This document shows, piece by piece, positions 30,120-64,000 of a DNA stretch of 64,000 nt. Source of the DNA: Terriglobia bacterium. Lineage in GTDB: Bacteria > Acidobacteriota > Terriglobia > 20CM-2-55-15. The stretch spans positions 32,001 to 96,000 of the forward strand of contig CBDAOY010000009.1 in the NCBI GenBank assembly GCA_965198225.1, read 5' to 3'. The notes under the pieces were generated by a model, which searched no databases, was not told the DNA's origin, and saw only the letters and a program-made list of their open reading frames with translations. A program made the translations under genes and the position numbers. The stretch's first letter is position 1. The number at the start of each line of letters is the position of its first letter.

Positions 30120-30126
30120 GAGCTAG

Positions 30127-30395
30127 CAGCCCGTGGCAGAACTCTGCAGGGCCGCGTTACGGCGAAACGGGGCCGGATTCGAGGAGGCGAGGACGAAGCA
30201 ATGCTCATTCATTGGGAGGAGTCGGCGACAACGAAGACGGCCCCGTTTCGCCGTAACCCGAAGGGCGCAGGGGGGTTCGGGCCGCAGGCTTTGTCCCTCG
30301 TCGGTCACGATGAATGATCATCGCTCCGCTCCTCTCTTCGCGCCTGCAACCCGAAGACCCCTGCGCGCGACCCTGCAGAGTTCTGCCACGGGCTG
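30127..30395. mobile_element. MITE-like structured element, copy 1
   Basis: 30-bp TIR (1 mismatch) CAGCCCGTGGCAGAACTCTGCAGGG(C/T)CGCG, CTAG on both sides, no credible ORF. Confidence 0.88.
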
Positions 30396-31043
30396 CTAGA
30401 GCAGTTGTTTGAGGTCCGCAGGCCGTTCGAGCCAGTACTCCGGTTCGTGAGGCTCCAGACTGTCCCGGGAGAAAGGCCCCCACATCGCGGCGGCCAGTCG
30501 CACCCTGGCCGCTCGACCCGATGCCATGTCGTGCGGGGAATCTCCGACGAACGTGGCTGCCTCGGGGCCCACGCCCAGCTGCTCCAGCGCCATCAAAACG
30601 GGTTCCGGGTGGGGTTTCGGGTTCTCGACATCGTCGGCTCCGATCAGCACGTCGAACATTCCGTCGTAGCCACCGATGGACAACCCCCGCTCCAGGCTTC
30701 CATGCATCTTGCTGGTGACTACCCCGAGCCTGAAGCCGGCTTCGCCGAGGGACCGAACGGCGTCGCAGACACCCGGGTAATGCTCGACCAGGTCGTCATG
30801 ATGTTTCAGGTTGTAGTCGACGTAGGTCGAGATCAGCTGTTGAATCTCATCGGCCTTCTCGGTGAATCTCCGGAACTGAACGCGGAGGGGAGTGCCGAGC
30901 ATCTCGAGCCATGCTTCATCGCTGATTGAAGGAAGCCCGTGCGTAGCGGTCGTGTGATGAAAGCTCTTGAGGATCAGGTCGACCGAGTCGATCAGCGTGC
31001 CGTCGAGGTCGAAAAGGATGGCGCGGTCCGGGGCCGGGGGCAT
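30396..31043 (-). CDS. HAD-family hydrolase (PpaX/Gph-like)
   Basis: LFDLDGTLIDS, VVTSK, KPHPEP, VGDSPHD. Confidence 0.9.
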   Translation of the reverse strand: MPPAPDRAILFDLDGTLIDSVDLILKSFHHTTATHGLPSISDEAWLEMLGTPLRVQFRRFTEKADEIQQLISTYVDYNLKHHDDLVEHYPGVCDAVRSLGEAGFRLGVVTSKMHGSLERGLSIGGYDGMFDVLIGADDVENPKPHPEPVLMALEQLGVGPEAATFVGDSPHDMASGRAARVRLAAAMWGPFSRDSLEPHEPEYWLERPADLKQLL

Positions 31044-31188
31044 GGCCTGAGTATAGCGCGACGTCAGTTTCCGATCCGAACCGCCCGGGAGTAGCCCACA
31101 ATCGGCTCCCACCGGGTACCCGTCGAGACGTTCTTTCGCATCATGACTCCTTTTCTCGTTTGGTCCAAACAGACTAACCGATCCGCGT

Positions 31189-31422
31189 TTGACCGACGAC
31201 AAAGCCGTTCACTATGATGTCGGGAAGGAGCGGATCGTGCCCTGCAAGTGTGTACAGATCAGCAAAGTCCCGCTGCCCGGCAAGGTTGTCGCCTACCAGT
31301 ACACCTTCAAGTGCACGATGAGTGACGGCCGCACCAGAAAAGCCACCCTTGTCGAATCCGACGACAAGCGCGCAAAGATGATCGCGGAGATCAAGGTCGG
31401 CCAGGCGTTGTCGAACGGGTAG
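31189..31422 (+). CDS. Small hypothetical protein
   Basis: Normal composition and codon usage; no recognised motif. Confidence 0.5.
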
Positions 31423-31516
31423 AAAAGTTCGTCAAGCGGAACGATCCGCGAGAGAGCCACTGAGAGGGGGGCAGGGGCCTGGCCCTGTCCCCGGGTGTTG
31501 ACAAAGCAGAAACCTG

Positions 31517-31755
31517 AAACTCCCCTCCTTGGATAAGGAGGGGTGGATGCACCGCAGGTGCAGACGGGGTGGTTTGACAACGCCGGGGTGGATGCACCGC
31601 AGGCGCAGACGGGGTGGTTCGACAACTCCGGTGGATGCGCCGAATCAGACGGGGTGGTTTGATAACTCGGGGTGGATGCGCCGAAGGCGCATTTCTCTTG
31701 ATCAACACCACCCCGGCGCTTCGCGCCACCCCTCCTCATCTGAGGAGGGGAGTTT
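31517..31755. repeat. Composite REP/BIME-like array
   Basis: Outer IR AAACTCCCCTCCT...AGGAGGGGAGTTT enclosing four units of GGTGGATGC.CCG..G..GCAGACGGGGTGGTT (the last one partial). Confidence 0.85.
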
Positions 31756-31860
31756 GGAGGACTCCAATCTACAAAGCCTTCAATCCAGGGATAATCGGGC
31801 CATGATAGCGGCGACGCAATTCGCCGCGAATTGCTGGAGGCCGCCTCCCACGCTTTGCCG

Positions 31861-32070
31861 TCACGGCCGAACCAGGCGACCCAGGGGGGGCGTAGGCCCT
31901 TGTGCTGGACGGTACTCGAAGCCCAGCTCCCGCAGGTTGTTGATCATGGCTTCGTTGGCCGGCCCGAAAGTGCTGAACCGGTCTCCTTTGGCCGGGGCCG
32001 CCCCCTTCATCACGCGGGCGAGGACGAGCCCGTCGAGTTCCTCACCGGCTTCCAGGTGCTTGTAGTCCAT
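31861..32070 (-). CDS. Small hypothetical protein
   Basis: Typical codon usage; no motif. Confidence 0.45.
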   Translation of the reverse strand: MDYKHLEAGEELDGLVLARVMKGAAPAKGDRFSTFGPANEAMINNLRELGFEYRPAQGPTPPLGRLVRP

Positions 32071-32091
32071 AGGCAGATACTAGCAGGTAGA

Positions 32092-32116
32092 AAAAGGGCG
32101 GTCCGAAGACCGCCCG
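32092..32116 (-). terminator. Intrinsic terminator of the S9 peptidase gene
   Basis: GGGCGGTC-TTCG-GACCGCCC followed by a T run on the minus strand. Confidence 0.75.
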
Positions 32117-32139
32117 TCGAGGTCGAGACTGTTCCTATT

Positions 32140-34507
32140 CTAACTACCGCCTTGTGACTGACTTGTGGTCGTCCCCTCGCTATCCTCCTCCTCAGCCGGG
32201 AGCGTGTTCAACAGGTCTTCCCATTCGAACCAGCCGTCCTTCCCGTTGATCCACTTTTCCATCCAGTTGAACTCCGACACCATCTTGACCAGACGGTTGC
32301 GATTGCTCGTGATTCCGTGGGTGGTACCGTCTTCCCTTCCCGTTGATCCACTTTTCCATCCAGTTGAACTCCGACACCATCTTGACCAGACGGTTGCGAT
32401 TGCTCGTGATTCCGTGGGTGGTACCGGGATAGACGAAGAACTCTGTCGGCACACCGAGCTTCTTCAGGGCCATGTGCAGCTCTTCACTCTGCGGGCGCGG
32501 CACTCGCGGATCGCCGTGAACGACGTGGACCATCGTCGGTGTCTTCGCGTTGTTGATGTACTTGAGGGGCGAGATGTCCCAGAGCGCGTCGAAGTCGTCG
32601 TAGGGGAACGTACCGAAGTAGTTCTGGCGATTCCGTTGCACGTCGCTCTGCGCGTACATCGAGATCCAGTTCATGGTCCCCGCGCCCGATGATATGGCTT
32701 TGAAGCGGTCTGTGTGCGTCAGGATCCAGTTGGACCAGTGGCCACCAGCGCTCCACCCCATCGCTCCCAGCTTGTCGGGATCCACCATGCCTTCCTCGAT
32801 GAGGTGATCCACCCCGGCGATGATGTCCTCATAGCCCTGCCGGAAGTAGTCGCCGACAATCTCGGTCCGAAACTCCTCGCCGTAATTGCTCGAGCCGCGG
32901 TAGTTCGGAAGCAGACACATGTACCCGTTCGCGGCGTAAACATGGGAATAGTAGCCGTGGCTGGCGTTGAAGCTCAGGACGCTCGCCGAGGCCGGACCGC
33001 CGTGAATCTGAACGATCAGCGGATAGCGCCGGCCGGGCTCGTAGTCGAGCGGTTTGACCAGGACGCCCTCAACCATCCTGCCGTCAGTCGAGCGCCACTG
33101 GACGGCCTCGGTCTCGCCTAGCTGCAACCCATCAACCTGCGGGTTGGAATTCGTCAGGCGCTTCCAGTTCGAGCGGTCCCCGACCTGGTCGATGGACGAC
33201 ACGGTGTAGATACTGGCGGGCGTGACCGGGTCGGAATAGTTGATCGTTACGGTGTCGCTCACCCAGTCGTAGGTCGCCGACACCGACCCAGGCTCGTCGA
33301 CGAGACGCGTGACGGCGCCCGACTCCACGTCGACCGCCAGCAGACCACGGGTGGCGCCGAGGCCCGCGTTCGAGTAAATCGTAGAACCGTCCTGAGACCA
33401 GAAACTGCCCGGAACGCGCCCGTCGAATTCGCCGCCCAGCATCCTGAAGTCGCCGCCACGATCGCTGACTTGCCTGACCCAGATCTTCTGGTCGCGATTG
33501 TAGGTGAAATCGTTGGATGCCGAGAAAGCCAGCATCGAACTGTCCGACGAAAACTGAACGGTGCTCTCCCGGATCTCTTCGTTGTCGGTCAACCGTTCGA
33601 TCTCGCCGGTCTCCACCTCGAGCAGATAGTTGTCCGCGTGGATGCCTCGCTCGGTGACGGTCCGCATGTAACGGTCGTTGGGCGTGCCCTGGTAAGCGAT
33701 CCACTTTGAGTCTCGCGATATGGTCACGCCACTGACCGCGTAGTCGTTCGTGTCGGTCAGATGCTCCTTCTCCCGGGTGTTCATGTCGAACGACCAGAGG
33801 TGCTCGAGGGCGCGGTCTTCGTTGCGGATCATGACATCGAAGTTCTCCCTCATCCTTCTGCGGTTGCCATTATCCACGCTGTCGGGAGCGATGAAGTAGA
33901 CCCTCTGGCTGTCAGGAGCAAACTCCCACCAGACGACCGGAGCATGGTGATCGATGAGATGGACCGGTTCCGGATCATCGATTTCGGCCAGACGGATTGC
34001 CCAGACGCTGCGGTCGTCTTCCTTGCCGGCCGTGTAGGCGAGCCACTGCCCGTCGTAACTAAACGCGTACCGGCTGACGCCGTCCTTCGCGTCGGTGATG
34101 CGGCGCGATTCCCCTCCGTCGGGCCGCATCAGGAAAAGCTGGTTGTCCGAACCGTCCGACACCCGGTCGGAAGCAAAGACGAAGAAGCTGCTGTCGGTCG
34201 ACCATCTCGGATTGGTCTCGTTCTTGCCAGCCGTGTAGGTCATCTGGCGGGTCGAGTCGATTCCCTCTTCGAGGGAAACCAGATACAGGTCGGTGAAGTT
34301 CTTGCCCGACTCCCAGTCGGTGATCGATCGGGTGAACACCATCGAACTTCCGTCCGGACTGACCCTCGCGTTCCCGACCGACTGCATGTTGATGATGTCC
34401 ATGAAGGTCATCGGCCGCTTGTCCTGAGCCGTGCCGAGCGGAACCGACACGACCGCCAACAGCGCCGCAACCAGTGCAATAGTCCCAAGTCGACTCATCG
34501 TTTTCAT
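32140..34507 (-). CDS. S9 (prolyl oligopeptidase/acylaminoacyl peptidase) family protein; C-terminus frameshifted by a 97-bp duplication
   Basis: Signal peptide, beta-propeller, IHGGP, NYRGS, GWSAGG, DPRVP, HG; 92-bp exact repeat at 32238-32329 and 32335-32426. Confidence 0.9.
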
Positions 34508-34714
34508 AAGCTCGCGCCCGAACAGCGCCCTCCTCTTTGAATGGGTTTCGAGATAACAACGAGGATCGAAACTTAGGGAGAGGGAGTCAAGTAATTTCGG
34601 TGGGAAGAATCGGATTCACCACGGAGGCCCGAAGGCACGGAGGGATCTGGCGCTCAAAACGATCAGCCGTGCAGAGCGCGGCGGAGACGCCGCTGAGACA
34701 AGGCGCGCGACCAG

Positions 34715-35119
34715 CTACTCTACTACCATGCCGATAGACTTGACACGGCTCGTCACGATTCGGCGGCCGTCGTACTGGAACTCCAGGTTGAAGCCCAGGT
34801 AGATGCCGCGAAGCTTGAGGAAGGAGCCGCCCATGGAACTCCCGGCGAGGTGCACAGCGGTGCGTTCGGGGAAGAATTGACCTCCGCGGACCATCACTTC
34901 GCCGGAATGCTTGGAGAGAATCGTAATCTCGTAAGTGCTGTTTTCGGTCTTCACGCAGAGACAGTCGAGGTCGTCAAGGGTTTCGATCTGCAGGCCGTCG
35001 CTCCACTCCCTCTTGGACCAATTATCAAGGATGCCCTCGGCGTTGTGCCAAGCCGACCGGTCCGTACCGAGCGTCGGCCGGCCGATTATGGTCTTGGCCG
35101 TGCGTCCGAATGCATCCAT
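34715..35119 (-). CDS. Hypothetical protein
   Basis: GGAG RBS; compact beta-rich ORF (TENSTYEI...VRGGQFFPE...GSSMGGSFLK). Confidence 0.75.
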   Translation of the reverse strand: MDAFGRTAKTIIGRPTLGTDRSAWHNAEGILDNWSKREWSDGLQIETLDDLDCLCVKTENSTYEITILSKHSGEVMVRGGQFFPERTAVHLAGSSMGGSFLKLRGIYLGFNLEFQYDGRRIVTSRVKSIGMVVE

Positions 35120-35316
35120 CGCTGGCTCTCCGGGGGACAGTTTACTTTAGATGCGGGTAGAGTCCCACATCCTTTTCCCAGAAAGAATCCTTGCAGTTAG
35201 GGTACCAAACCAATCCTCTCGGACGCCAATCCCCGCGGTCCTGCGGGGATCCGGAGGCGGGGGCTAAGCCATTGATTGCAGGGCATGACTAGCTCATACT
35301 CGGATTACATAGAACG

Positions 35317-36687
35317 ATGCCCAACGAGAACCCGCTCGTCCGGTCGGTCCGCCAGACACTCCATAAGCACCGGCTGATTGACACAAGTGACACGATCCTG
35401 GTCGGAGTATCGGGTGGCGCCGATTCGGTCTGCCTTCTCCACATCCTGCATACTCTGGGACTCCGGATCGGGGTCGGCCATGTCAACCACGGGTGGCGAG
35501 GCCAGGCGTCGGACGACGACGAGCATTTCGTGCGCGAACTGGCGGCTCGACTCGACGTGCCCTTCCACACCCAGGAACCTGGCGTAGCGGGATCAGGCAA
35601 CCCGGAGGCCGAAGCCCGGACGGCCCGGAAGCGTTTTTTTGATCAATTACTTACAAGTGAGTCCTTTACTAAGGTTGCGCTGGCTCACTCGCGAAACGAC
35701 AGAAGCGAGACATTGCTTCTGAACCTACTCCGCGGGTCCGGCCCGGAAGGGCTGGTCGCGATGAGTGCCGTGACGGGACGTGTGATCCGGCCACTGATCG
35801 AATCCACCCGCGACGAGATCGAGGCCCACCTCCGAACCATCGGCCAACCCTGGCGCGATGACCGAACGAACAGCGATCTCGACTTTGCACGAAACCGCAT
35901 CCGACATGTCGTACTGCCGACGCTGGCGTCCGATTTCAATCCGAATCTGATTGACACACTGGCGCGAACCGTCGAGCTGCTTGCAGACGAGAACGAATGG
36001 ATGAAGCAGGCGATCGACGAGTGGCTCCTCGAACGCTGCCGGAAGGATGAGGCCGGCGTTGTGTTGCGCATCGATGATTTGGCTGGCCGCCCTGTCGGCT
36101 TTGTCAGGAGAGTCTTGAGGGAGTCCTTGAGGCGGTCCGGCTCCGCCCTCACCGACGTCGGCTTCGATCATCTCGAAAGTGTTCGGTCGCTACTCGAGCC
36201 GGGAAAAAGCGGCAAGGTCATCGAGCTGCCGGGCGCCATCGCCGTCGAACGCAATTTCGACACACTCGTCTTTGCCGAGGGGGTCGAAGCAAAGGCTGAC
36301 TACGAATACGAACTCGAGATTCCCGGGCGGGTTCACGTGCCTGAAATCGGTTGCGTGATCGAGGCCCGGCTCGCCAGCCCGGCCGACGGCAAACCCAGGC
36401 AGGGAAGGGCCTTGGTCGATGGTGAATCTCTGGGTCCCTGTGTTAGAATCCGTAATTGGAGAAATGGCGACTTTTATAGCCCTGTAGGACTTCCAGCGGC
36501 TACGCTGAAGAAGCTCTTCCAGAACGAACGGGTTCCGAGGAGACAGAGACACCGATTGCCGGTGTTGGTCGCGGAATCTTCGATCGTCTGGGTGGCCTCG
36601 TTCCCTGTTTCCCGCGAATTCGCCCCGACGGGCCATTCCCGAAGAATCATCGAATTCGAGGCTTTGCCGCAGGCTCCGGGAGAGTAG
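35317..36687 (+). CDS. tilS: tRNA(Ile)-lysidine synthetase
   Basis: VSGGADS PP-loop, HVNHGWR, AHSRND..ETLL, IRPL, RNRIRH, TilS_C region. Confidence 0.95.
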   Translation: MPNENPLVRSVRQTLHKHRLIDTSDTILVGVSGGADSVCLLHILHTLGLRIGVGHVNHGWRGQASDDDEHFVRELAARLDVPFHTQEPGVAGSGNPEAEARTARKRFFDQLLTSESFTKVALAHSRNDRSETLLLNLLRGSGPEGLVAMSAVTGRVIRPLIESTRDEIEAHLRTIGQPWRDDRTNSDLDFARNRIRHVVLPTLASDFNPNLIDTLARTVELLADENEWMKQAIDEWLLERCRKDEAGVVLRIDDLAGRPVGFVRRVLRESLRRSGSALTDVGFDHLESVRSLLEPGKSGKVIELPGAIAVERNFDTLVFAEGVEAKADYEYELEIPGRVHVPEIGCVIEARLASPADGKPRQGRALVDGESLGPCVRIRNWRNGDFYSPVGLPAATLKKLFQNERVPRRQRHRLPVLVAESSIVWVASFPVSREFAPTGHSRRIIEFEALPQAPGE

Positions 36688-36776
36688 AGTCGTTTGGGAG
36701 ACTGAGGAGTCTAAAGTAACAAAGCGACTTTAGACGAGCCCGGATTTCGTGAGGAATCCAGGCTTGGGGGATTTTA

Positions 36777-38693
<1,917 letters not shown>

Positions 38694-38776
38694 GCGTCGT
38701 TGCGCTTCTGTGAGCGCACTTTGCGAGGGGATGAAGATGTGCGGTCATAGACCGCACCTACACTGATGAAGCATCG

Positions 38777-38804
38777 GCCAGAAGCCACGGCTTCTGGCTT
38801 TTTT
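38777..38804 (+). terminator. Intrinsic terminator-like hairpin after ftsH
   Basis: GCCAGAAGCC-AC-GGCTTCTGGC-TTTTTT. Confidence 0.7.
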
Positions 38805-38814
38805 GTATCTACTG

Positions 38815-39687
38815 ATGCGCACACCCCGCACCTGGAAGCTCCCTCGAACATCATTCGAAATGGGCGAGCGTACGCTGGTGATGGGGATCCTGAACGTCAC
38901 ACCCGATTCATTCTCCGACGGCGGACTCTACAGCGACCCTTCGCGGGCTATCGAACGGGGCCGGGAGATCGAGGCGCAGGGCGCCGACATCCTCGACATC
39001 GGGGGGGAATCGACGAGACCGGGAAGCCAGCCCATCTCGGTGGACGAAGAGATCCGACGCGTCGTACCCGTCGTCGAACAACTCGCGCGGGTACTTCGAA
39101 TCCCTATCTCGGTCGACACCTACCGGGCCGAGGTCGCCCGACGGGCGATCGATGCGGGGGTCCAGGTCATCAACGACGTGGGCGGCCTCAGACTGGACCC
39201 CGAAATGGGACAGGTGGCGGCCGAAACACGCGTGGGGATCGTCCTGATGCACAGTCGCGGGGATCGCAGCGAACTCCACGTCCGTGACGGGGACCACTCT
39301 CCCGAAGCCGTGTGCAGCGAACTCTCTCAAACCATTGAAAGCGCTATCCAAGAAGGTATTGAACCCGCCTCGATAGTCGCCGACCCCGGTCTCGGCTTCG
39401 GTAAGAGCTCACGCGCCAGCCTAAAAATCTTAAAAAGCCTGGGTCTTTTTAGTACACTAGACTATCCACTATTAGTGGGCGTGTCCCGTAAGTCATTTAT
39501 AAAAATGAACATATCCGGCCCGGAGGTCGCGGTTTGGACTACCGCATCCGCCGTGGCTCTGGCCGTAGGAAACGGGGCCCACGCCATTCGTGTCCATGAT
39601 GTTGCTCAAATGAGAGCCGTGGCTCAAATGGCAGACGCAATCGAGCAGGAAGATTGGGGACGGCGACCGAATTCCCGGCATTCCTGA
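38815..39687 (+). CDS. folP: Dihydropteroate synthase
   Basis: MGILNVTPDSFSDGG, DIGGESTRPG, DPGLGFGK, SRKSF, RVHDV. Confidence 0.97.
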   Translation: MRTPRTWKLPRTSFEMGERTLVMGILNVTPDSFSDGGLYSDPSRAIERGREIEAQGADILDIGGESTRPGSQPISVDEEIRRVVPVVEQLARVLRIPISVDTYRAEVARRAIDAGVQVINDVGGLRLDPEMGQVAAETRVGIVLMHSRGDRSELHVRDGDHSPEAVCSELSQTIESAIQEGIEPASIVADPGLGFGKSSRASLKILKSLGLFSTLDYPLLVGVSRKSFIKMNISGPEVAVWTTASAVALAVGNGAHAIRVHDVAQMRAVAQMADAIEQEDWGRRPNSRHS

Positions 39688-39716
39688 GTTCGGTCTCCGT
39701 CCCCGAATTAAAACTG

Positions 39717-40526: not shown

Positions 40527-40535
40527 GGTCAGGTC

Positions 40536-42970: not shown

Positions 42971-43211
42971 CCTCTGATGCGCCTGCGCACATGGAGTTAT
43001 CGTGCGCAGGGTGGCGAAAAGGAACCGCCGAGCAATACCCTGGCGGTTTTTTTTAGCCCCTTCAACACTCCCCAAACTTCGTTTTGAGGGGTGTCGCAGC
43101 GCTTATTTGAGGCCTGGAGCCCCAAGCTCTTTGACAACAGAAAGCGTGCCTAAAAGTCGAATAACTGAGTCTTTTAGCTGACAAGCGATGTATCTGAACT
43201 TTCAAAAGTCT

Positions 43212-44741
<1,530 letters not shown>

Positions 44742-44902
44742 GAGTAAAGTCTCACAAACGCCTGTTGAGCTGGGATTCGGTTCCGGCTGGCGGGCACGCT
44801 TTCTGCCTCAAATATACGTGTAGGTGCGGTCTATGACCGCACAATCAAACCTGGCACTCGTCTAACCGGCGAGACCCGACGACAGTAGCGGAGTAGAATC
44901 CC

Positions 44903-44977
<75 letters not shown>

Positions 44978-45006
44978 TTCTGAAGGGGTGCGGGCTTCCG
45001 GTGCCG

Positions 45007-45079
45007 GGGGATGTAGCTCAGTTGGGAGAGCGCCGCCCTTGCAAGGCGGAGGTCGTCGGTTCGATCCCGATCATCTCCA
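45007..45079 (+). tRNA. tRNA-Ala(TGC)
   Basis: GGGGATG/CATCTCC acceptor with G3-U70, TTGCAA loop. Confidence 0.97.
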
Positions 45080-45352
45080 TTGAAAGAAATCGAAATCCGA
45101 TTTCTTCACATTCGAAATTCGAGATCTCAGATTTCCAATTTCAAATTTTTCGCTTCGGCTTGCAGCCGGAGCGAAAGTCACCTGGTCTTTGACAACTGAA
45201 TATTGATGGGCAAACTCTACGAATTCCTGACGTAGAGCGAGCTGGAAAGCCTCTCCTGTTGGTGCGGTCTCTGACCGCACATGCGACATCTCTGCCGACC
45301 AGCACGCGAAACGTTTATGAGTAGAGCGAGCGCCTTAGGTAAAAGTTGTAGT

Positions 45353-48348
<2,996 letters not shown>

Positions 48349-48570
48349 TTATTGATCTAATCACTACCAAGTTCTTCCTATCGCGCTCATTGCCCATCAA
48401 TATTCTTTTGTTAAGGATCTCGTGTAGGTGCGGTCTATGACCGCACATCCGATCACGGCGTAGGTGCGGTCTATGACCGCACAATCCGATCTTTGAAAGA
48501 ATTTCTTCTGTAGGGTCGCTTTACGGGCACCAATTGTGCGGTCATAGACCGCACCTGCAGAACACCATTT

Positions 48571-48689
<119 letters not shown>

Positions 48690-53874: not shown

Positions 53875-53902
53875 CCGGCAACTGACAAATGGCTGCGGGC
53901 TG

Positions 53903-54280: not shown

Positions 54281-54330
54281 AATTCCCCCTCCGGCACTCT
54301 TCCGACAACTGACTACTGGCTACAATTCTT

Positions 54331-55025: not shown

Positions 55026-55373
55026 TTACTGGCTACTGCCCAGCTGGGCGGCGTAGGTCTGCACGGCAATCTTGTCGTCGCGGACCACGAAAGTGTCGGT
55101 TCCCAGCAGAATCCACGGGAGCGCTTCCCAGTGGATGTAGGCAACTTCTCCGACAACTTCCTTTCGGCAAATCTTGAACGCTTCCCATATCCCCTCAGGT
55201 AGCCCTTTCACAAAGTCGGTGAAAAAGGCACGGAGCTCTTCCAGACCGCGGTAGGTCCCCTCCGGTGCGATGACGACCGAGTCTTCCGTGTAATCGGCCA
55301 TGATCGAATCGATTCCCTCGCCAAAGGCCTGAAGATGGTGGTTCAGGACTGCCTCAGTTCTATCGGTCGACAT
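55026..55373 (-). CDS. SnoaL/NTF2-like protein
   Basis: HHLQAF...IMADYTEDSV...GTDTFVVRDDKI..QT. Confidence 0.85.
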   Translation of the reverse strand: MSTDRTEAVLNHHLQAFGEGIDSIMADYTEDSVVIAPEGTYRGLEELRAFFTDFVKGLPEGIWEAFKICRKEVVGEVAYIHWEALPWILLGTDTFVVRDDKIAVQTYAAQLGSSQ

Positions 55374-55425
55374 AGGCTCTCATGTCTCCTTTCCTCTCGG
55401 TTCACATATAACTGACGACGCCCTA

Positions 55426-56133
55426 CTAAGTGACCAGATATCGCGTCTCCAGCGGTTCCTCGACGACCCGTCCGTCGACGGCGGCGACGCGATAGGCCCT
55501 GGCATTCGGCCGTGACGAAACCGCGGCATGGATGTCGCCGTCGATCAAATGCAACGCGACCCCGTCGTCCATGGCGTAGCCGGTCTTGGCAGCTCCTTTT
55601 TTCAGGACACGATGGTACGAGGGCCTGCGGTCGACTTCACCATCGTAATGGGGACTGCAGCTTCCTGGCACGAATCCCAGACAGTCGAGTACGGCCAGTT
55701 CCTCCGCATAGGAGTCGGTCAGGCCCTGTTCAAACCAACAGATGGCGCCGGCGCTGACGCCGGCCATCACGACACCGTCCCTCCATGCTTTCTCGAGCAA
55801 CTCCGTAAGACCCCATTCCCGCCAGAGAGCGAGCATGCTCTTTGTATTGCCGCCACCGACGTATATGACGTCCTGAGCCTGTATCAGCGAACGCAGATCG
55901 GGAGTCCTGTCGAAGAGCATCAGGTGGGAAGGCCGGCAGTCGAGTTGGGAATAGGCGGCATAGAAGGCCTGAATGTAGCCCGCGGAATCGCCTGATGCCG
56001 TCGGAACGAAACAGACGGCGGGGTTCGAGACCGCCGCCTGTTCGAGAATGTAGCGATCGAGCGCCAAATCGTTCGTGTCGGATGAGAATCCGCCTCCGCC
56101 AAGCGCAACAATCTGCTTCGTCGGGCCACTCAT
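55426..56133 (-). CDS. Peptidase E (S51) family
   Basis: PTASGD, YVGGGNT, GVSAGA, PHYD. Confidence 0.9.
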   Translation of the reverse strand: MSGPTKQIVALGGGGFSSDTNDLALDRYILEQAAVSNPAVCFVPTASGDSAGYIQAFYAAYSQLDCRPSHLMLFDRTPDLRSLIQAQDVIYVGGGNTKSMLALWREWGLTELLEKAWRDGVVMAGVSAGAICWFEQGLTDSYAEELAVLDCLGFVPGSCSPHYDGEVDRRPSYHRVLKKGAAKTGYAMDDGVALHLIDGDIHAAVSSRPNARAYRVAAVDGRVVEEPLETRYLVT

Positions 56134-56522
56134 TTGTTAATTGTCATAGTGGGTCGTCCGTTAAGAAGTATTGATGGCTTTCCGACTTGTCACCAGTCAG
56201 TCGTCACTTGTCACTGGTTGTAACAGGCCATTGATCCCTTACGTCCGATCAGTCTACCGAGAAAGCACGGGTCGGACACATTGGAATGTTCGATTTCGAA
56301 CAGTTCAGACCGGAAACGGACGAGATGTACCGGGTTCGCAGTCCCAAAGTCGAGACCGATCACGTCGGCCGAAGCCGAAAACCTCCCTGTTTTCTTGAGG
56401 AAGGGCAACCGAATCTCCGTTCTCGTGTCTATCCAAACAATGGCACGGGACTTGCCATGCACTGCTGTGGAAGAGTTTTTTTCTGAACGAAAAGCGCCCG
56501 AGCCTCGTAGAGATAGTAAGAG

Positions 56523-57179
56523 ATGACTCATTCCGACAGCGGAGAACACAGGATCCCGAACCAGGTGGTGAAAATGGCCGGCGGGGGCCACGGAACCGCC
56601 GAGGAACGGATCCTTGTCGAACGTGCCAAGGGTGGCAACCAGGAAGCGTTCGAGAAGCTGGTGCACATCTGCGACCGCGGTGTGCTCAGACTCGCCTATC
56701 GTAGTATGCTCGGAAACGCCGAAGACGCCCAGGACGCTTACCAGGAAACGTTCCTCAAGGCTTTTCGCTACCTCAGAAACTTCCGCTTCGAATCCAGCCT
56801 GAACACGTGGATATACCAGATCGCCACCAACGTCTGCCTGGACCGACTCCGCCAGCGGCAGAAGCGGCGAGAGTCGACGATGGACGAGGGGCGCACGGAC
56901 CCGGCGGACGCCTTTGCCGCGGTCACGGACTCGGCAACGTCGATGGCCAGTTCCTACACCAACCCGGAACGCAGGCTGTACGGTAAGGAGCTAGGCGAGC
57001 AGATCGACGCTGCGGTGAGAACTCTCTCAGAAAAAGAACGCCTGGTTTTTGAGATGAAGCACTACGGCGGCTTCAAGCTCCGGATCATCGGCGAAATCCT
57101 AAGGACCAGCGAGGGCGCCGCGAAGAACTACCTGTTCCGGGCCACCCGGAAACTGCGCGCCCAACTGGCGCGCGCCTGA
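56523..57179 (+). CDS. ECF sigma-70 factor
   Basis: DAQDAYQETFLKAF, TWIYQIATN region 2; LSEKERLVF...IGEIL...AKNYLFRA region 4. Confidence 0.92.
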   Translation: MTHSDSGEHRIPNQVVKMAGGGHGTAEERILVERAKGGNQEAFEKLVHICDRGVLRLAYRSMLGNAEDAQDAYQETFLKAFRYLRNFRFESSLNTWIYQIATNVCLDRLRQRQKRRESTMDEGRTDPADAFAAVTDSATSMASSYTNPERRLYGKELGEQIDAAVRTLSEKERLVFEMKHYGGFKLRIIGEILRTSEGAAKNYLFRATRKLRAQLARA

Positions 57180-57325
57180 CTTTCCTCTCCTCGTAAGAAC
57201 CTCCCCGGGCGTCAGCTCCAAACGCGCATACATTGTGTATACTAGCAACCTGCGGCGGAAGCCTTATGTCTGCCGACAGCTCGTGGATCCTCGGTGAGTG
57301 GTGTGGCTCGGGAGGAAACCACAGG

Positions 57326-58114
57326 ATGCAGTTTCAAGACCTCTTCCGGGAGCCCGAGGTCGGGGTTCGGCTGGCCGAACACATGCCGGACTGGTTGCTG
57401 GTTTTCGACCGGAAGGGACCTCTGCTGGATGCCAACCGGAAGGCATGCGACGCCCTCGGATACTCCCACGACGAGTTGCTCTCGCTCAGCTTGTGGGACA
57501 TCACCCGGGGCTTCTCAGCCGATGAGTTCTCAACGCTCTTCGGGCCGATTCCCGAGCTGCCCCTCATCCTCACTGGATTCAGCCGGCACAAGAACGGTGG
57601 CATGCACCCGATCCAGGTACACGCCTGGGCGCACCGGCTCGACAACACCGAAATGATCCTGGCGGTCGTTCGGGACATAACCCAGAACGAGCTGGCAAAG
57701 AGGGCTCTGGAGGACAGCGAGGAAAGGTTCCGCAAGATCTTCGAGCATTCGAACGATGCGATCCTCGTCGTCGATCCCGAGAACGATGCGATACTGGACG
57801 CGAACCCGCAGGCTTGCTCGATGCTCGGCTACCCCTATCGCGAGTTGCGCTCTACACCCATCAGCTCCATCCATCCGCACGAAATGCCCGAGCTCCTGTC
57901 GTTTGCCGATTCGGTTCTCGAGGTGGGTAGCTGCTGGACCCATGAGCTGAGCTGCCGTACGAAGAGCGGGGTGGTTCTCCCTGCAGAGATTTCGGCGTCG
58001 CTGCTGGAGATCGACGACCGGCCGGTCGTGCTGGCCGTAATCCGGAACCTGGGCGAGGGCAACGTGGAGGAAGGTCGACTCCAGGCCCGCCCCCAGCAGG
58101 AACAGACGTCCTGA
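57326..58114 (+). CDS. Tandem PAS-domain protein without output domain
   Basis: Two PAS repeats (ANRKACDALGYS, VRDIT; SEERFRKIFEHSNDAI, ANPQACSMLGY). Confidence 0.8.
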   Translation: MQFQDLFREPEVGVRLAEHMPDWLLVFDRKGPLLDANRKACDALGYSHDELLSLSLWDITRGFSADEFSTLFGPIPELPLILTGFSRHKNGGMHPIQVHAWAHRLDNTEMILAVVRDITQNELAKRALEDSEERFRKIFEHSNDAILVVDPENDAILDANPQACSMLGYPYRELRSTPISSIHPHEMPELLSFADSVLEVGSCWTHELSCRTKSGVVLPAEISASLLEIDDRPVVLAVIRNLGEGNVEEGRLQARPQQEQTS

Positions 58115-58132
58115 CGGCTGACCGCCTCAGCC

Positions 58133-58420
58133 TCACACACCGGCGGCAACGATCAAGTTCGCTTTCGAAGCCTGCTGCCGAAGCTCTTTCGGACCCCGGT
58201 ATTCTTCCGACGACCACCACTCTTTGGCACGCTCGACACTGTCGAATTCGAGGATCACGAACCGTCCCGGGTTCCAGTCGCCTTCCAGAACTTCCGTCTC
58301 GCCTCCCCGTACGAGGAATCGGCCGCCGTATGCTTCGATCGTAGCCGGCACATGCTTCTTGTACTCTTCGTACTTAGCGGCGTCTTCGACATTCACTTGG
58401 ACGACGATGTAGGCGGACAT
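58133..58420 (-). CDS. DUF1330 protein
   Basis: YGGRFLVRGG...LEGDW...ILEFDS.E.AKEWW.SEEY. Confidence 0.92.
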   Translation of the reverse strand: MSAYIVVQVNVEDAAKYEEYKKHVPATIEAYGGRFLVRGGETEVLEGDWNPGRFVILEFDSVERAKEWWSSEEYRGPKELRQQASKANLIVAAGV

Positions 58421-58430
58421 AGCAATCTCC

Positions 58431-58910
58431 TTAATCGATCAGCACCTCGGCTTCGATCTCGACCGGGATATCGAAGGGCAGTTCCGCGACTCCGATCGCA
58501 GATCGAGCATGGCTTCCGCGCTCGCGGCCGTATAACTCGATGACGAGATCCGAAAAACCGTTGATCACTGACGGTGTGTTGTTGAACCCGGGCGCAGCAT
58601 TCACCATACCGAAAACTCGGACCCAGGCCCGGACACGGTCCAGTTCCCCCAGCTCTCGTTTGAGGCTCGCGAGCATCGCGAGAGCCGTGACGCGGGCTGC
58701 GTCGTAGGCCTCTTCGGGTGTCAGATCTCGACCGACCTTGCCCCGCTTCTGGGTAAGGCTCCCGTCGGGATTCATCGGTCCGTGGCCGGACACGAGAGCC
58801 CGTTCTCCAACGGTCCGAACCCAGGGGAACGGTAATGTCGCACCGCCCGGCACCGCCATCTCCGCCGGCAGAACGAGTCCCAGTTCTTCCAGTTTTTCCT
58901 CGATAGTCAT
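58431..58910 (-). CDS. RidA/YjgF-family protein
   Basis: VSGHGP, VINGFSDL, HARSAIGVAELP..IPVEIE. Confidence 0.9.
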   Translation of the reverse strand: MTIEEKLEELGLVLPAEMAVPGGATLPFPWVRTVGERALVSGHGPMNPDGSLTQKRGKVGRDLTPEEAYDAARVTALAMLASLKRELGELDRVRAWVRVFGMVNAAPGFNNTPSVINGFSDLVIELYGRERGSHARSAIGVAELPFDIPVEIEAEVLID

Positions 58911-58934
58911 AGTCTCGACGGCGACGAACTTTCC

Positions 58935-59549
58935 CTAGGGCGGTCGGATTCCAAACTGGAGCGCGCGTTCGTCTCTGTGGGGAACAAAAGGCCCGTTTTC
59001 GAGCTTGAATCGGATGGAGTAGTTGTTGGGCTTCTCCCGCAGGGTCACGGTCATCGAAAACATACCGGTGCCATCCGGAGGGATCAGACCGGGATCGACA
59101 GGGATTTCCAGTGTAGCGGGAAACCGGCCCGTGGTCTCGCGGGCCGTAATCACGGCGATGACATTCTCGACTTCGACCTCGCTGCGGTTGGTCATCCAGC
59201 CAGCCACGGACAGGGTCTTCTCCTCGAGCTCATGGTTGAGCTCGTTCAGGGTGAACGGCTCTGATCCATCGGCGGTCGCCGGTATCAGGACGTCCAGGTA
59301 GCGATCATCCATCGGAAGAACGACCGACGAGAGATCGGTAAGGGAAAAGAGGACGATGCCGACGATCACCAGTCCGGACATTATGCCGGCTCCCATCCGC
59401 AGGTAGTCGAACTTGGGCTTCGACCCGGGAACGTCCAGCAGAAACGCAGTACTCTCGTCCTCCCCGGCCCCCGCCGATTCTTCGGCAGCCTCGGCTTCAG
59501 GCGCCTTATCCTCAGGAGGCTCGATCTCTTCTGGAGGTTGGGGATCCAT
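58935..59549 (-). CDS. Single-pass membrane protein with an Ig-like soluble domain
   Basis: Acidic N-terminus, one TM, beta-rich domain. Confidence 0.7.
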   Translation of the reverse strand: MDPQPPEEIEPPEDKAPEAEAAEESAGAGEDESTAFLLDVPGSKPKFDYLRMGAGIMSGLVIVGIVLFSLTDLSSVVLPMDDRYLDVLIPATADGSEPFTLNELNHELEEKTLSVAGWMTNRSEVEVENVIAVITARETTGRFPATLEIPVDPGLIPPDGTGMFSMTVTLREKPNNYSIRFKLENGPFVPHRDERALQFGIRPP

Positions 59550-59620
59550 CTACCTAATGATAACCCCTAGCTAGTGGTCAGTGGTTGTCAGTTGCCAGTA
59601 GTCAGTAGTCAGTTGTTTTC

Positions 59621-60999
59621 GAGCTACCCTCAAAAGGTGTGTAAATAGCATAGGCGGTGATTATCCTTCCGGGTGAAATAAAAACCCGGGCGGAAGAGCC
59701 CGAAAGGAAGGAGTCACACCGCCATGAGCAAGAAGAACATTGATCGAAGTGTGGAGTCAAGAGTCTGCTTTGAACAGCTGGAAGAGTGGGTGCGAGAGCA
59801 GATCCAGTTTTACGTACAGGAACTGTTGGAGGATGAAGTGACACAGCTGCTGGGACGAAGAAAGAATGAGCGTCGCCGAGAAGTGGACGCGCCCGGTGGC
59901 TATCGCAACGGCTACGGTAAGGAGCGGCGACTGACGCTGAGTTGCGGAACGATCAAGCTGCGGCGTCCCCGAGTGCGGGATCTGGAAGAGCGTTTTGAGA
60001 GCCGGGTCTTGCCGCTGTTTGCCAAGCGGACGCAAGAGGTACGAGACTTGATTCCAGAACTCTATTTGCATGGTCTGGCCGAGGGGGATTTCGATCTGGC
60101 CTTAAGAGGGCTTTTAGGGGAAGAAGCGCCGCTGTCCCCCAGCACCGTAGCCCGGTTGAAGGAGAAGTGGCAGGGAGAAATGGAGGCCTGGCAAAGCCGT
60201 CGGCTGGACGATCTGGAAGTGGTGTATCTGTGGGCAGACGGTGTGTACATCAAAGCAGGGCTGGAGAAGGAAAAGGCCGTGATCCTGGTAGTGATCGCCG
60301 CTTTAAGTGATGGCACTAAAGTGGTGGTGTCGGTCAGTAGTGGTTATCGAGAATCGACCCAGAGCTGGTCCGAAGTGCTGAGGGATCTCAAAGAGCGGGG
60401 GATGAACCCACCGAGACTGGTGATGGCTGACGGGCATCTGGGGATCTGGGGAGCGTTGCGCAACGTTTTCCCAGAAGCCGACGAGCAGAGATGCTGGAAT
60501 CATCGCATCGTCAACTTGCTGGCTAAGATCCCCAAGGGTCGGCACAAAGCGGCGTTGTTGATGTTGCGGCAGATCCCTTATGCAGAAACACGGCAGGAAG
60601 CCGAGCAAGTCAAAGGACGATTCCAACATTGGTGTGGCAAGAGAGGACTGGAGGCTGCGGCTGATCTGATCGACCAGGACTGGGATCGGATGGTGACGTT
60701 TTACAACTATCCCAAACAGCAGTGGCAACATCTGCGGACTACCAATCCAGTGGAGTCTCCCTTCTCTGCTCTGCGACTGCGAACCGATGCCTCTCGAAGG
60801 TTCAAGAAAGTGGCCAACGCACGGGCTGTCATCTGGAAGATGCTGCTGGTCGCTGAGAAAAGATTTCGCCGTTTGAAGGCTCCGCACTTGATGAAGGATG
60901 TCTACCAAGGCGCCCAATATGTCAATGGAGTTCCAGTCAACCAAGTCACCGAGGAGAAAGCCGCCTGATGTCTATTTACACACTTATTGACGGAACCTC
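59621..60999 (+). mobile_element. IS256-family insertion sequence
   Basis: 28-bp imperfect IRs GAGCTACCCTCAAAAGGTGTGTAAATAG / CTATTTACACACTTATTGACGGAACCTC; 9-bp TSD GTTGTTTTC at 59612-59620 and 61000-61008. Confidence 0.95.
59724..60968 (+). CDS. IS256 transposase
   Basis: YRNGY, PRVR, YLWADG, MADGHLG, QRCWNH, RTTNPVES. Confidence 0.95.
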   Translation: MSKKNIDRSVESRVCFEQLEEWVREQIQFYVQELLEDEVTQLLGRRKNERRREVDAPGGYRNGYGKERRLTLSCGTIKLRRPRVRDLEERFESRVLPLFAKRTQEVRDLIPELYLHGLAEGDFDLALRGLLGEEAPLSPSTVARLKEKWQGEMEAWQSRRLDDLEVVYLWADGVYIKAGLEKEKAVILVVIAALSDGTKVVVSVSSGYRESTQSWSEVLRDLKERGMNPPRLVMADGHLGIWGALRNVFPEADEQRCWNHRIVNLLAKIPKGRHKAALLMLRQIPYAETRQEAEQVKGRFQHWCGKRGLEAAADLIDQDWDRMVTFYNYPKQQWQHLRTTNPVESPFSALRLRTDASRRFKKVANARAVIWKMLLVAEKRFRRLKAPHLMKDVYQGAQYVNGVPVNQVTEEKAA

Positions 61000-61138
61000 G
61001 TTGTTTTCGGCGATACGCCGAACCGGAGCGTGAGAGAGCCACTGTGAGGGGGATAGGGGTATAGCCCTGTCCCCGGGTCTTCACTGTGCAAAAAAGTCGG
61101 GGAACCCTTCAACTGACCACTGACGAACTTGTCACTGA

Positions 61139-63103
61139 CTACCCCGCCAACAACGGTGCCACCAACACCAGCGAAACGATCGACATCAGTTTGATCAGGA
61201 TATTCATCGACGGACCGGATGTGTCCTTGAACGGGTCGCCCACAGTGTCACCAACGACGGCGGCCTTATGTGCGTCCGATCCTTTGCCGCCCAGATTCCC
61301 GGCCTCGATGTATTTCTTGGCGTTGTCCCATGCCCCACCCCCGTTGGACATCATGATCGCCAGCAGAACCCCGGTGAGCGTCGCTCCACCCAGGAATCCG
61401 CCAAGGGTCTCCGCACCGAAGGCAAACCCGATGACGACCGGCATCGCCACAGCGAGCAGTCCAGGAAGCAGCATCTCATGGAGGGCGCCATCCGTCGCGA
61501 TGGAAACGCAGTTGGCATAATCGGCTTTCGCTTCGCCGGCCATCAGACCGGGAATCTCCCGAAACTGACGCCGAACTTCATTCACCATCTTGAACGCCGC
61601 GCGACCGACGGCCTTCATCGTCATCGCTGCCAGCATGAACGGCATCACCCCACCCAGGAAAAGACCTATCACCACGTTTGCCTGTATCAGGTTGATCGAA
61701 TCCAATCCGACGGTCGTCGTGTAGGCCGAAAAGAGGGCCAGCGCTGTGAGCGCGGCGGACCCGATGGCGAATCCCTTGCCGATTGCCGCGGTCGTGTTAC
61801 CCAGTGCGTCCAGGCGATCGGTGATGCTCCTGATCTCCGGCCCGGCCCCGGACATTTCGGAGATACCGCCCGCGTTGTCTGCGATGGGGCCGTAGGCATC
61901 CACGGCCATCGTCACGCCGATGGTCGACAGCATTCCCACGGCAGCGACGGCAATGCCGTACAACCCGTTGAGCGTGTAGGACACATAGATTGCCGCGCTG
62001 ATCGTGAGAACCGGCAGTATCGTACTCTCGAATCCGACCGACAGACCGCTGATGATCGTCGTCGCTGGACCCGTCTGGCTGGCTTCGGCGATGTCGCGAA
62101 CGGGTTTGGCCGACGTGTAGTACTCGGACTCGAAGCCGATCGCCACGCCCGCGAGGAGACCTGCCACGACCGCCCAGAAAGCGGAAAGATCGGGCATGGT
62201 CGTACGAACAATCCAGAAAGCTGCGATCAGGAAGAGGGCGCCCGCTACGTAGGTCGGCATGTGAAGCGCCCGTTCAGGACTCATGCCCTTGAACACCCGC
62301 ATCGAGAACACGCCCAGCAACGAACACACCAGACCCGCCATCACCAGCAACAGCGGAAGCGACATGAACGCCAGCGGGTTCGCAACCGTTGCGCCTATCG
62401 CCATCGTCGCGATCACGGACCCCACGTAGGATTCGAACAGGTCCGCACCCATCCCTGCCGTATCTCCCACGCAGTCGCCGACGTTGTCGGCGATCACGGC
62501 GGGGTTCCTTGGATCGTCTTCGGGTATACCTGCCTCGACCTTCCCAACGAGATCCGCGCCTACATCAGCGCTTTTCGTAAAGATACCTCCACCGACACGG
62601 GCAAACAACGCGATCGAACTCGCACCCATCGCAAACCCGCTGATGATCTCCGTATCCTTCGTGAAGTAGTAGTAAATACCGATTCCGAGCAGGCCGAGCG
62701 AAGCGACGGAAATACCCATCACGGCGCCGCCGTTGAAAGCGACCATCAAGGCCGGACCCGTCCCGCCGTCCTTGGCGGCCTGGGTCGTTCGGACGTTGGC
62801 TCGGGTGGCGGCCTTCATGCCGAAGAACCCCGCGCCCATCGAAAACCCCGCGCCGGTCAGGAAGGCGACCCCGGTCCAGGGACTCAGCGCCACGCTCAGG
62901 ACGATGAATACGACGGCAACAAAGATGGACACAATCGTGTACTCGCGTTTGAGGAACACCATTGCTCCAAGATGAATGCTGTCGGCGATCTCCTTCATTC
63001 GGTCGCTGCCGGGCGACATGCGCGCGATGCCGAGGTAAATGAAGCCGGCGAAGACGAGGCCGACAATTCCAACTATTGGAGCCAAGGGGGTCAAATCCTG
63101 CAT
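61139..63103 (-). CDS. hppA: Membrane-integral pyrophosphatase, K+-dependent type (probably Na+-translocating)
   Basis: [26 protein letters not shown] (Ala = K+-dependent), [10 protein letters not shown]. Confidence 0.95.
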
Positions 63104-63267
63104 CGAGTTCCTCCGAAACAGATCTACGTATCAGTACCAACCCGCATTCCCACCAGTGGTCTACCGCAGCGCGACGACGACCAACGAGCAAGGCGGGCTA
63201 ATTGAGGTCGGGGGAAGCATCGGGCAATCGATCACCTCCGCCCTAGAGAAAGCATATTCTACAAAAC

Positions 63268-63296
63268 AAGCCCCATTTCCGGTGGAAATGGGGCTC
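63268..63296 (-). terminator. Hairpin, probable terminator downstream of rplQ
   Basis: AGCCCCATTTCC-GGT-GGAAATGGGGCT with TGTTTTGT following on the minus strand. Confidence 0.75.
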
Positions 63297-63331
63297 GCTA
63301 CCGATTGGAACAGGTCACGGCTAAGCACAAG

Positions 63332-63602
63332 CAGCCCGTGTCGGAAAACCTGATGGCTCGCGTTACGGCGGCGTTGCGCCAGATGCTAGGCGCCGCGCCG
63401 ACCGGCCTGCGGGTCCGGAGAAATGTCGCGCGGCAACAGCGCCCGCGTGTGACGCCGCCGTAACCCTCCGGGCGCACGGGGGTTGCGGTCGGATACTTTG
63501 TTGCTCGTCGTCATGATGAAACAGCATCAATTCCTCCTCGCGCCTCGTCTCCGCCTCGCAAGACCCGTGCACGCGAACCATCAGGTTTTCCGACACGGGC
63601 TG
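63332..63602. mobile_element. MITE-like structured element, copy 2
   Basis: 31-bp TIR (1 mismatch) CAGCCCGTGTCGGAAAACCTGATGG(C/T)TCGCG; flanks CAAG and CTAG; same internal architecture as 30127-30395. Confidence 0.85.
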
Positions 63603-64000
63603 CTAGTCTTCCGCCGCCTCTGCCCCTTCCTCACTTTCTTTCTCTTTCTCGTCCTTTTCGGTCTCTGCCCGAGCAGCCTTCTTCACTTCCAGCTCGCTGC
63701 CGAGCAACTCGATGACCGCCATGTCGGCTCCATCTCCGACACGGGGTCCGAGGCGGACGATCCGACTGTAGCCACCCGGACGGTCGCTGAATCGAGGAGC
63801 GATGGTGTCGAAGACCTTCTTGGTAGCAACGTCACTCAAGAGATAGGACTGGACCTGCCTTCTTGCATGCAACGTGTCGCGCTTGCCCAGCGTGATCATT
63901 TTTTCGGCCAGCGGCCGCAGTTCCTTCGCCTTCGGAACAGTCGTCACCAACCGCTCGTGTTCGAGAAACGACGTCACGAGATTACGAAGAAGTGAACGCC
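63603..64000 (-). CDS. rplQ: 50S ribosomal protein L17, 5'-partial
   Basis: LLRNLVTSFLEHERLVTT..KAKELR...EKMITLGK...RPGGYSRIVR...R.GDGA.MAVIEL. Confidence 0.97.
   Translation of the reverse strand, partial: RSLLRNLVTSFLEHERLVTTVPKAKELRPLAEKMITLGKRDTLHARRQVQSYLLSDVATKKVFDTIAPRFSDRPGGYSRIVRLGPRVGDGADMAVIELLGSELEVKKAARAETEKDEKEKESEEGAEAAED

Follow-up and report, generated by a model that had tools for sequence, protein, structure and literature searches.

An IS630-type family of probable miniature transposons in Acidobacteriota keeps a covarying four-way-junction interior through the exchange of its ends and frequently adjoins stop codons

We analysed two related elements of about 270 bp in a 64-kb stretch of the genome of a Terriglobia bacterium (contig CBDAOY010000009.1, positions 32,001 to 96,000; hereafter the window, meaning the whole stretch of 64,000 nucleotides), which had been pointed out in an earlier note and are called here copy 1 and copy 2. 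[quoted passage not shown] The more interesting point is that the interior fold, a four-way junction, and not the ends, persists throughout the phylum, with compensatory changes and through the exchange of ends.

In the earlier note, copy 1 spans 30127-30395 and copy 2 spans 63332-63602, each starting with CAGCCCGTG and finishing with CACGGGCTG; both copies have the same nine bases at either end. Sequence and positions were borne out, except that the real ends (G...C) lie one base further out on either side, at 30126-30396 and 63331-63603. The alignment of both copies reproduced the inverted ends of about 30 bp, which match inside each copy and diverge between the copies past the first 9-15 bases, and also showed that the interiors align, with a mean column identity of 81% over the whole alignment. 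The predicted folds contained all of the interior structures, namely stem A, a mini-hairpin of the form CC-loop-GG and, interrupted by an internal loop of purines, stem B, and the right-hand CTAG of both copies does hold the TAG stop of a minus-strand gene (HAD-family hydrolase for copy 1, rplQ for copy 2).

The genome to which the window belongs (6.4 Mb, 9 contigs) was searched for further members. BLAST with copy 1 returned 18 full-length copies (copy 1 included) at 96-100% identity and many weaker matches, while nhmmer, run for three rounds, returned 308 matches over the two strands that collapsed into 156 non-overlapping loci, summing to 31,270 bp or 0.49% of the genome; inside the window, nhmmer found only copies 1 and 2. 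Because the genome has 156 related loci, the observation made in the window lies far beyond chance. Pairing of end motifs resulted in 118 elements (86 of GTGRCCTGTAAC type, 30 of CAGCCCGTG type and 2 nested mixtures), with 205 end-like motifs left unpaired, and clustering of the paired elements at 88% identity separated subfamilies of 34, 17 (copy 1 type), 16, 14, 12 (copy 2 type), 5, 5 and 2 members as well as 13 singletons. Element lengths range from 161 to 273 bp, as expected for MITEs (under about 500 bp). The build is modular, the two ends enclosing first the stem A module, then the mini-hairpin and then the stem B module: module 1 occurs alone in a 161-bp subfamily that has only stem A, the stem B module occurs alone in a 181-bp subfamily, and a third variant subfamily retains stem A and the base of stem B with a different apex. 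Open reading frames within copy 1 are 61-92 amino acids long and lie on both strands. A small coding frame was considered and rejected: there are 38-codon ATG frames on both strands, but they are shifted by insertions and deletions between subfamilies (by eye).

Copy 1 is predicted to fold very stably in either orientation when compared with dinucleotide shuffles, both as RNA (-178.8 kcal/mol, z -11.6, on the plus strand; -188.5 kcal/mol, z -14.0, on the minus strand) and as DNA (-106.6 and -106.4 kcal/mol on the plus and minus strands, z about -13). A first structural alignment was built from 20 distinct elements from the own genome, nine related genomes and two named assemblies, and RNAalifold recovered from it a four-way junction, in which the outer end stem meets stem A, stem B and, between these two, a mini-hairpin of two pairs; each of the long stems is capped by a CGATG-loop-CATCG hairpin. 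Two-sided changes were present in 49 of the 86 pairs, and 96.1% of the cells pair, vs. 80.7% in shuffled alignments and 38-43% when the partners were slid; the covariation score was 0.441 vs. 0.155, and none of 500 shuffles reached any of the observed measures. The outer stem alone has 30 pairs, with 96-98% of cells paired. As related sequences can beat shuffles without having any structure, the case rests on the slid control and on the number of two-sided changes. A phylum-wide alignment of 27 sequences has two-sided changes in 52 of 78 pairs, and in it the tandem purine mismatches of both long stems and the junction core were kept on the plus strand. Among the unpaired interior columns, 27 of 112 are at least 90% conserved, and the copies of the own genome diverge from their subfamily consensus by 2.6% in stems and 4.2% in loops, counted per copy and not per mutational event. 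The maintenance of the four-way-junction fold by many two-sided changes across the phylum, on either strand, is strongly supported by these data, and the covarying nested stems described in the earlier note are strongly evident in both alignments. A search against Rfam, which the note had also proposed, found only rRNA and tRNA in the whole window at the gathering threshold; with both copies as queries and E values up to 10, the best match reached 21.6 bits vs. a gathering threshold of 94, so that no family attains its threshold for either copy.

The family was present in 25 of 60 related genomes (own included), 20 of these being among the 33 other genomes of its taxonomic family, and a phylum-level sample of 301 genomes contained it in 14 (own included). 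A search with an interior pattern matched, among named records, only three Terriglobia bacterium assemblies (a class of Acidobacteriota), and neither viral contigs, screened with two interior patterns, nor plasmid records gave a match. Identity to copy 1 is 89-92% for copies in another genus and only 77-80% for those in genomes of the same genus, which suggests a horizontal spread of the family. In other classes, the same interior is found with other ends (GAGCCTGTCCGAG, CAGGCCGTGGTG, GTGTCCTGTCCCAGAG and GTACTCMCTTCCATA types), and at least five end types occur phylum-wide; between them, identity amounts to 31-56% over the outer columns and 60-67% over the interior. The exchange is clearest in a single genome (G336), where two multi-copy sets have ends that are 44% alike and interiors that are 95% identical, with the break at the base of the outer stem; the interior therefore outlives the ends.

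Target site and mode of insertion were deduced from the flanks of the 118 paired elements. TA is present on both sides in 76, C at position -3 in 103 and G at position +3 in 101 of them, and 115 start with G and finish with C. These inner bases are better kept than the outer C and G, whose variation is mutually independent, a pattern that fits a 2-bp TA duplication within a preferred CTAG. The CTAG target named in the earlier note thus holds as the sequence context, but the duplicated bases are TA. We consider it very improbable that the elements are IS5- or IS1182-type derivatives with a 4-bp CTAG duplication, as CTAG on both flanks of most copies would by itself be compatible with such a duplication, but the element-side G and C are kept far better (115 of 118) than the outer C (103) and outer G (101), which are independent of each other, and no intact element with matching ends was found apart from those coding for a transposase of the IS630 family (IS5 and IS1182 transposases were not searched for). 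The kinship to IS5/IS1182 proposed at first is consequently replaced by one to IS630. IS630 itself prefers CTAG. Members of the IS630 family target and duplicate TA and cut two bases inside the 5' ends, and they cleave linear DNA poorly compared with supercoiled DNA (PMC2170065).

Empty sites, which the note had suggested looking for, were found for copy 2 and not for copy 1. The rplQ site is empty in three genomes of the same genus and in one genome of another genus of the same family (G001, G002, G003 and G005); in all four, rplQ stops at CTAG or TTAG, and immediately after it come a short spacer and a hairpin plus T-run that is conserved. For copy 1, the search for a syntenic empty site was negative, the neighbourhood being different in G002, G003 and G006. 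Regarding a mobilising enzyme, an intact IS630-family insertion sequence (IS) of 1124 bp resides in the genome in three identical copies (Table 1), and the commonest subfamilies, at the least, have ends in common with it. Its protein of 349 amino acids carries the Pfam domains DDE_3 and HTH_32/HTH_23 and scores 257 bits against the NCBIfam IS630 model (cut-off 100); its ends match those of GTGRCC-type MITEs at 20-23 of 30 positions and each other at 21 of 30. From sequence, this IS is probably active, and the largest MITE subfamily (34 copies, ~1.5% divergence) is likely to be driven by it. A second IS630-like gene (C5:518368-519270), 43.5% identical to the first, has GTCTCCTGTCCCAGAAA-type ends and CTAG flanks, and no autonomous partner for GTACTC-type ends was seen in three genomes. 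A transposase-bearing element with matching ends is available for the GTGRCC-type subfamilies; none was found for the CAGCCCGTG type in the own genome or at the loci read in five relatives. Multiple copies, inverted ends, TA duplication, an empty orthologous site and a matching transposase-bearing element all support the non-autonomous mobile family that the note had proposed.

Two family copies contain another member inserted into their own internal CTAG; in one of these nested insertions, TA is seen on both sides of the inner element. At one nested insertion (C9:672653-672970 and the bases that follow), five extra bases (GTCTA) stand between the inner right TA and the resumed host copy and may be the footprint of an earlier excision. 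A 102-bp singleton (C4:246684-246785) carries GTGRCC-type ends around an unrelated short interior, and many of the unpaired end-like motifs are solo ends; other sets of MITEs probably use the same transposase.

The position of the elements at gene ends can be explained by the junctions, which read TA+G and C+TA: with G as its first base and C as its last, an element that lands in the TA of a TAG or TAA stop codon re-creates TAG, and the encoded protein stays the same. Stops are therefore among the few CTAG sites where insertion is harmless. In the own genome, 38 of the 118 elements (32%) adjoin a gene stop, and removal of the element together with one TA restores TAG or TAA in place at 31 of 39 docked gene ends, the other eight having a decayed second TA. 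CTAG is about seven-fold under-represented (3114 free sites vs. 22,925 expected), with 430 free sites at gene stops, 1303 within genes and 1381 intergenic; TAG serves as stop in 1738 of the 5025 called genes, 471 of these as CTAG. The comparison of stop codons with other CTAG sites, put forward in the note, yields just a mild excess (p = 0.04), as 23.7% of the free non-genic sites lie at stops. No elements were counted inside genes, a figure that is partly built into a caller based on open reading frames and carries no weight. Elsewhere, 11 of 37 element loci in other genomes are docked on stops. Both window copies have the same orientation relative to their genes, a trait that does not extend to the family (23 sense and 14 antisense in the own genome, 5 and 5 in other genomes), and orientation is not associated with local GC skew (33 vs. 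25 elements; for 59 the skew was too weak to decide). Convergent, tandem and divergent regions hold 21, 64 and 33 elements vs. 437, 958 and 390 free CTAG sites (p = 0.14). Docking thus results chiefly from target choice and purifying selection; a dedicated role in 3' untranslated regions (UTRs), such as the portable 3'-UTR processing module of the earlier note, is not supported in view of the unbiased orientation, a gene context like that of free CTAG sites and a docking frequency only modestly over expectation.

The functional strand had been left undecided in the note, rightly so, given that both strands fold equally well. Watson-Crick pairs make up 91.8% of the paired cells and G-U pairs 3.6%. 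The outer stem has equal numbers of G-U and A-C cells (17 each), while the interior stems have 59 G-U vs. 18 A-C cells, with one doubtful pair contributing 18 of the 59 and the cells not being independent; this interior excess favours the plus strand, modestly. Contigs from three RNA libraries cover the element, and one of 131 nucleotides (nt) bridges the junction between element and rplQ, bearing in mind that such contigs carry no information on strand or ends and that DNA or other repeat copies may be among them; positions 63000-63339 of the window are not covered in the three libraries. The rplQ stretch is present in the metatranscriptome runs X5, X14 and X15, which are labelled sponge metagenome and from which no conclusion on habitat was drawn.

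As to why the interior is kept, we tentatively favour, with a confidence well short of even, that it acts in cis at the DNA level during mobilisation. A self-folding interior would make the whole element a composite palindrome that could be extruded from supercoiled DNA, extrusion would place both ends side by side for the transposase, whichever one matches the ends, and the highly stable RNA fold in read-through transcripts would be a by-product. Several observations weigh against this account and the transposon model behind it. The interior G-U excess, the purine-purine mismatches kept on the plus strand and the 27 conserved unpaired columns fit a mere foldable spacer poorly and point to a strand- or sequence-specific constraint. 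No autonomous partner with CAGCCCGTG-type ends was found in the own genome, where long end pairs were only composites, or in five relatives, where 7 of 30 IS630-like loci were read by eye and all had other ends; the putative link between the two window copies and IS630 is based on the TA/CTAG target, on the shared interior and on the terminal 14 bases of the CAGCCCGTG type, which match the other end type at 9 positions (counted by eye). In addition, the docking statistics depend on gene calls from our own codon-usage caller, not a validated predictor (5025 genes, 84% coding), and the subfamily of copy 1 (SF2) has 11 of its 17 copies at stops, above the prediction of the target-site model. It is possible, if somewhat doubtful, that the lasting unit is the interior cassette of ~210 nt (four-way junction, conserved core, tandem purine mismatches and two CGATG-loop-CATCG hairpins), acting as a single strand of plus polarity (RNA or single-stranded DNA) and repeatedly re-fitted, throughout Acidobacteriota, with ends that belong to different IS630-like transposases, so that the MITEs would be interchangeable vehicles or the cassette a universal cis-acting enhancer of mobilisation. 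This reading is compatible with, and in part favoured by, an interior that stays 95% identical across different ends in one genome, at least five end types across the phylum, a G-U excess confined to the interior and 27 conserved unpaired columns.

The fold could also be without function, a product of arm-against-arm correction of replication hairpins (similar to gene conversion) in subfamilies born as near-perfect palindromes, with recent spread or horizontal transfer mimicking conservation. The higher identity to copy 1 in another genus (89-92%) than in the same genus (77-80%), which suggests transfer over long vertical descent, would agree with this, as would the overwhelmingly Watson-Crick pairing, the equal folding of both strands, the neutral-looking genomic distribution and the apical parts of modules 1 and 2, which resemble inverted copies of each other (by eye). 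Arm correction, however, does not yield nested local stems, a conserved junction core or 27 conserved unpaired columns, and an interior 95% identical across an exchange of ends, together with at least five end types across classes, argues for retention for a reason; we regard a functionless fold as unlikely. Even less probable, in our opinion, is that the interior is a functional RNA selected by the host (a portable 3'-UTR stabiliser, an RNase target or a small RNA gene), with the inverted ends as a mere vehicle. It would account for the strong covariation, the interior preference for G-U over A-C (59 to 18) next to a symmetric outer stem (17 to 17), the smaller variation of stems than of loops among own-genome copies (2.6% vs. 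4.2%), the RNA-library contigs over the element, one of which spans the junction with rplQ, and the conservation of the tandem G.A mismatches and of the mini-hairpin loops, which we take to be of the UNCG or GNA type. Precedents exist as well, since Correia elements undergo cleavage by RNase III and ERIC elements make a site for RNase E accessible (PMC10969869). But the orientation counts relative to docked genes are 23 vs. 14 in the own genome and 5 vs. 5 in others, both window copies are antisense to their genes if the plus strand is read, the elements are spread over convergent, tandem and divergent regions as free CTAG sites are (p = 0.14), and no Rfam family reaches its threshold (21.6 bits vs. 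94). Likewise, no promoter-like site was found in or beside either copy, G-U makes up merely 3.6% of the paired cells, and the RNA libraries may contain DNA and do not distinguish repeat copies.

Known systems resemble the family in different respects. Stowaway MITEs of plants are mobilised by Tc1/mariner transposases, have a TA duplication, ends that relate to a mariner-like transposase, a high hairpin potential and very high copy numbers, and their families are defined by the ends, around unrelated interiors. TA duplication, transposase-related ends, hairpin potential and high copy number are all shared with the present family, whose conserved part is, in contrast, the interior. REPs are palindromic repeats of 20-40 bp with a GTAG or CGTC head and without inverted ends or TA duplication and are associated with RAYT transposases; membership in the REP/BIME group was considered and is ruled out by size and ends (RAYT genes were not searched for). 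Correia (Neisseria) and ERIC/YPAL (enterobacteria) elements are likewise short, TA-flanked and multi-copy, can form long hairpins, often lie inside transcription units and have deletion variants (PMC10969869, in part), but they consist of a single long hairpin of 100-160 nt instead of a 270-nt four-way junction, and the two modules of the present element also occur singly (161- and 181-bp subfamilies). REP/BIME and mosaic intergenic repeats are, like our elements, modular, palindromic and extragenic, and are frequently located just 3' of stop codons (PMC3733652, in part). IS630/ISY100 and their MITEs share with the family a TA target that is duplicated, 24-30-bp ends, a DDE-domain transposase that also has two helix-turn-helix motifs and, as far as the GTGRCC-type subfamilies are concerned, a resident autonomous element with matching ends (PMC2170065). 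They differ from it in that the present interior does not come from the resident IS, being a self-folding cassette of ~210 nt common to sets with different ends, and in the strong preference of our family for a CTAG context. MITEEc1, which is ERIC, is placed under IS630 in ISfinder, and a census lists 99 MITEs in phages of Acidobacteriae UBA7540 (both from PMC11602168). No description of the family was found in full-text searches of the literature, where it may be listed in the MITE catalogue of PMC11602168; in PMC8841776, MITEs appear only in the reference list. We consider this a new IS630-type MITE family that is closest in kind to ERIC/MITEEc1, Correia and Stowaway and is set apart by the four-way junction, by modules that occur alone and by an interior conserved while ends are exchanged.

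The family offers a clean, quantified case of small transposons accumulating on stop codons, where a TA/CTAG target combined with a terminal G rebuilds TAG, and knowing it is useful for the annotation of acidobacterial genomes, as the copies inflate intergenic repeats and break assemblies. If the interior does promote mobilisation by any transposase, it would represent a general principle of MITE success that is testable with the resident IS630-family element; if it has an RNA function instead, it would be an undescribed class of structured RNA from a poorly studied phylum.

Table 1. Coordinates of both elements, their parts and adjoining genes (window positions), and of the resident insertion sequence (contig positions)
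Feature	Position	Strand	Remarks
Glyoxalase/VOC-family gene	29712-30119	+	Convergent with copy 1; TGA stop 4 bases before left TA
Left TA of target duplication, copy 1	30124-30125		Within CTAG 30123-30126
Copy 1, whole element	30126-30396	+	271 bp; subfamily SF2; 17 paired genome copies, 96-100% identity
Copy 1, left inverted end	30126-30155	+	Outer stem with 30367-30396
Copy 1, module 1	30156-30257	+	Stem A; tandem G.A/A.G internal loop; apical CAATG-loop-CATTG hairpin
Copy 1, mini-hairpin CC-GAA-GG	30258-30264	+	Junction centre; stem and flanks invariant in 27/27 aligned elements
Copy 1, module 2	30265-30366	+	Stem B; purine internal loop; apical CGATGA-loop-TCATCG hairpin
Copy 1, right inverted end	30367-30396	+	Final C supplies the G of the TAG stop on the minus strand
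Right TA, copy 1	30397-30398		With 30396, TAG stop of HAD gene (minus strand)
HAD-family hydrolase gene	30396-31202	-	Stop adjoins copy 1; Pfam HAD_2, 7e-48
Hairpin and T-run 3' of rplQ	63258-63295	-	Read by eye; kept at empty sites of four relatives
Left TA of copy 2, decayed to AA	63329-63330		From sequence and comparison with empty sites
Copy 2, whole element	63331-63603	+	273 bp; subfamily SF5; 12 paired genome copies
Copy 2, stem A (about)	63362-63464	+	
Copy 2, mini-hairpin (about)	63465-63471	+	
Copy 2, stem B (about)	63472-63572	+	
Right TA, copy 2	63604-63605		With 63603, TAG stop of rplQ (minus strand)
rplQ (ribosomal protein L17)	63603-63977	-	Stop adjoins copy 2; Ribosomal_L17, 7e-35
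Intact IS630-family IS	C4:315558-316681, C8:1087178-1088301, C9:947526-948649		1124 bp; three identical copies; CTAG-flanked; own genome, outside the window

Copy 2 separates the stop of rplQ from the downstream hairpin and T-run, which is conserved in four relatives and is probably the rplQ terminator. A simple terminator scan did not call this hairpin, and in copy 1 the scan returned one weak internal site vs. 0.5 expected; the promoter scan covered both copies and their immediate surroundings.

Downstream of rplQ, a minus-strand open reading frame of 654 amino acids (61139-63103) resembles a membrane pyrophosphatase, by eye from its sequence. In a relative, the locus L110 (G006:C1:3012538-3015884) has tandem repeats of ~48 bp at about 1880-2150 (window orientation) with a glyoxalase-family gene upstream, unrelated to the MITE family. 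The window also includes a complete rRNA operon at 43211-48688 (16S, two tRNAs, 23S and 5S) and further tRNAs at 19548-19631 and 21970-22042.

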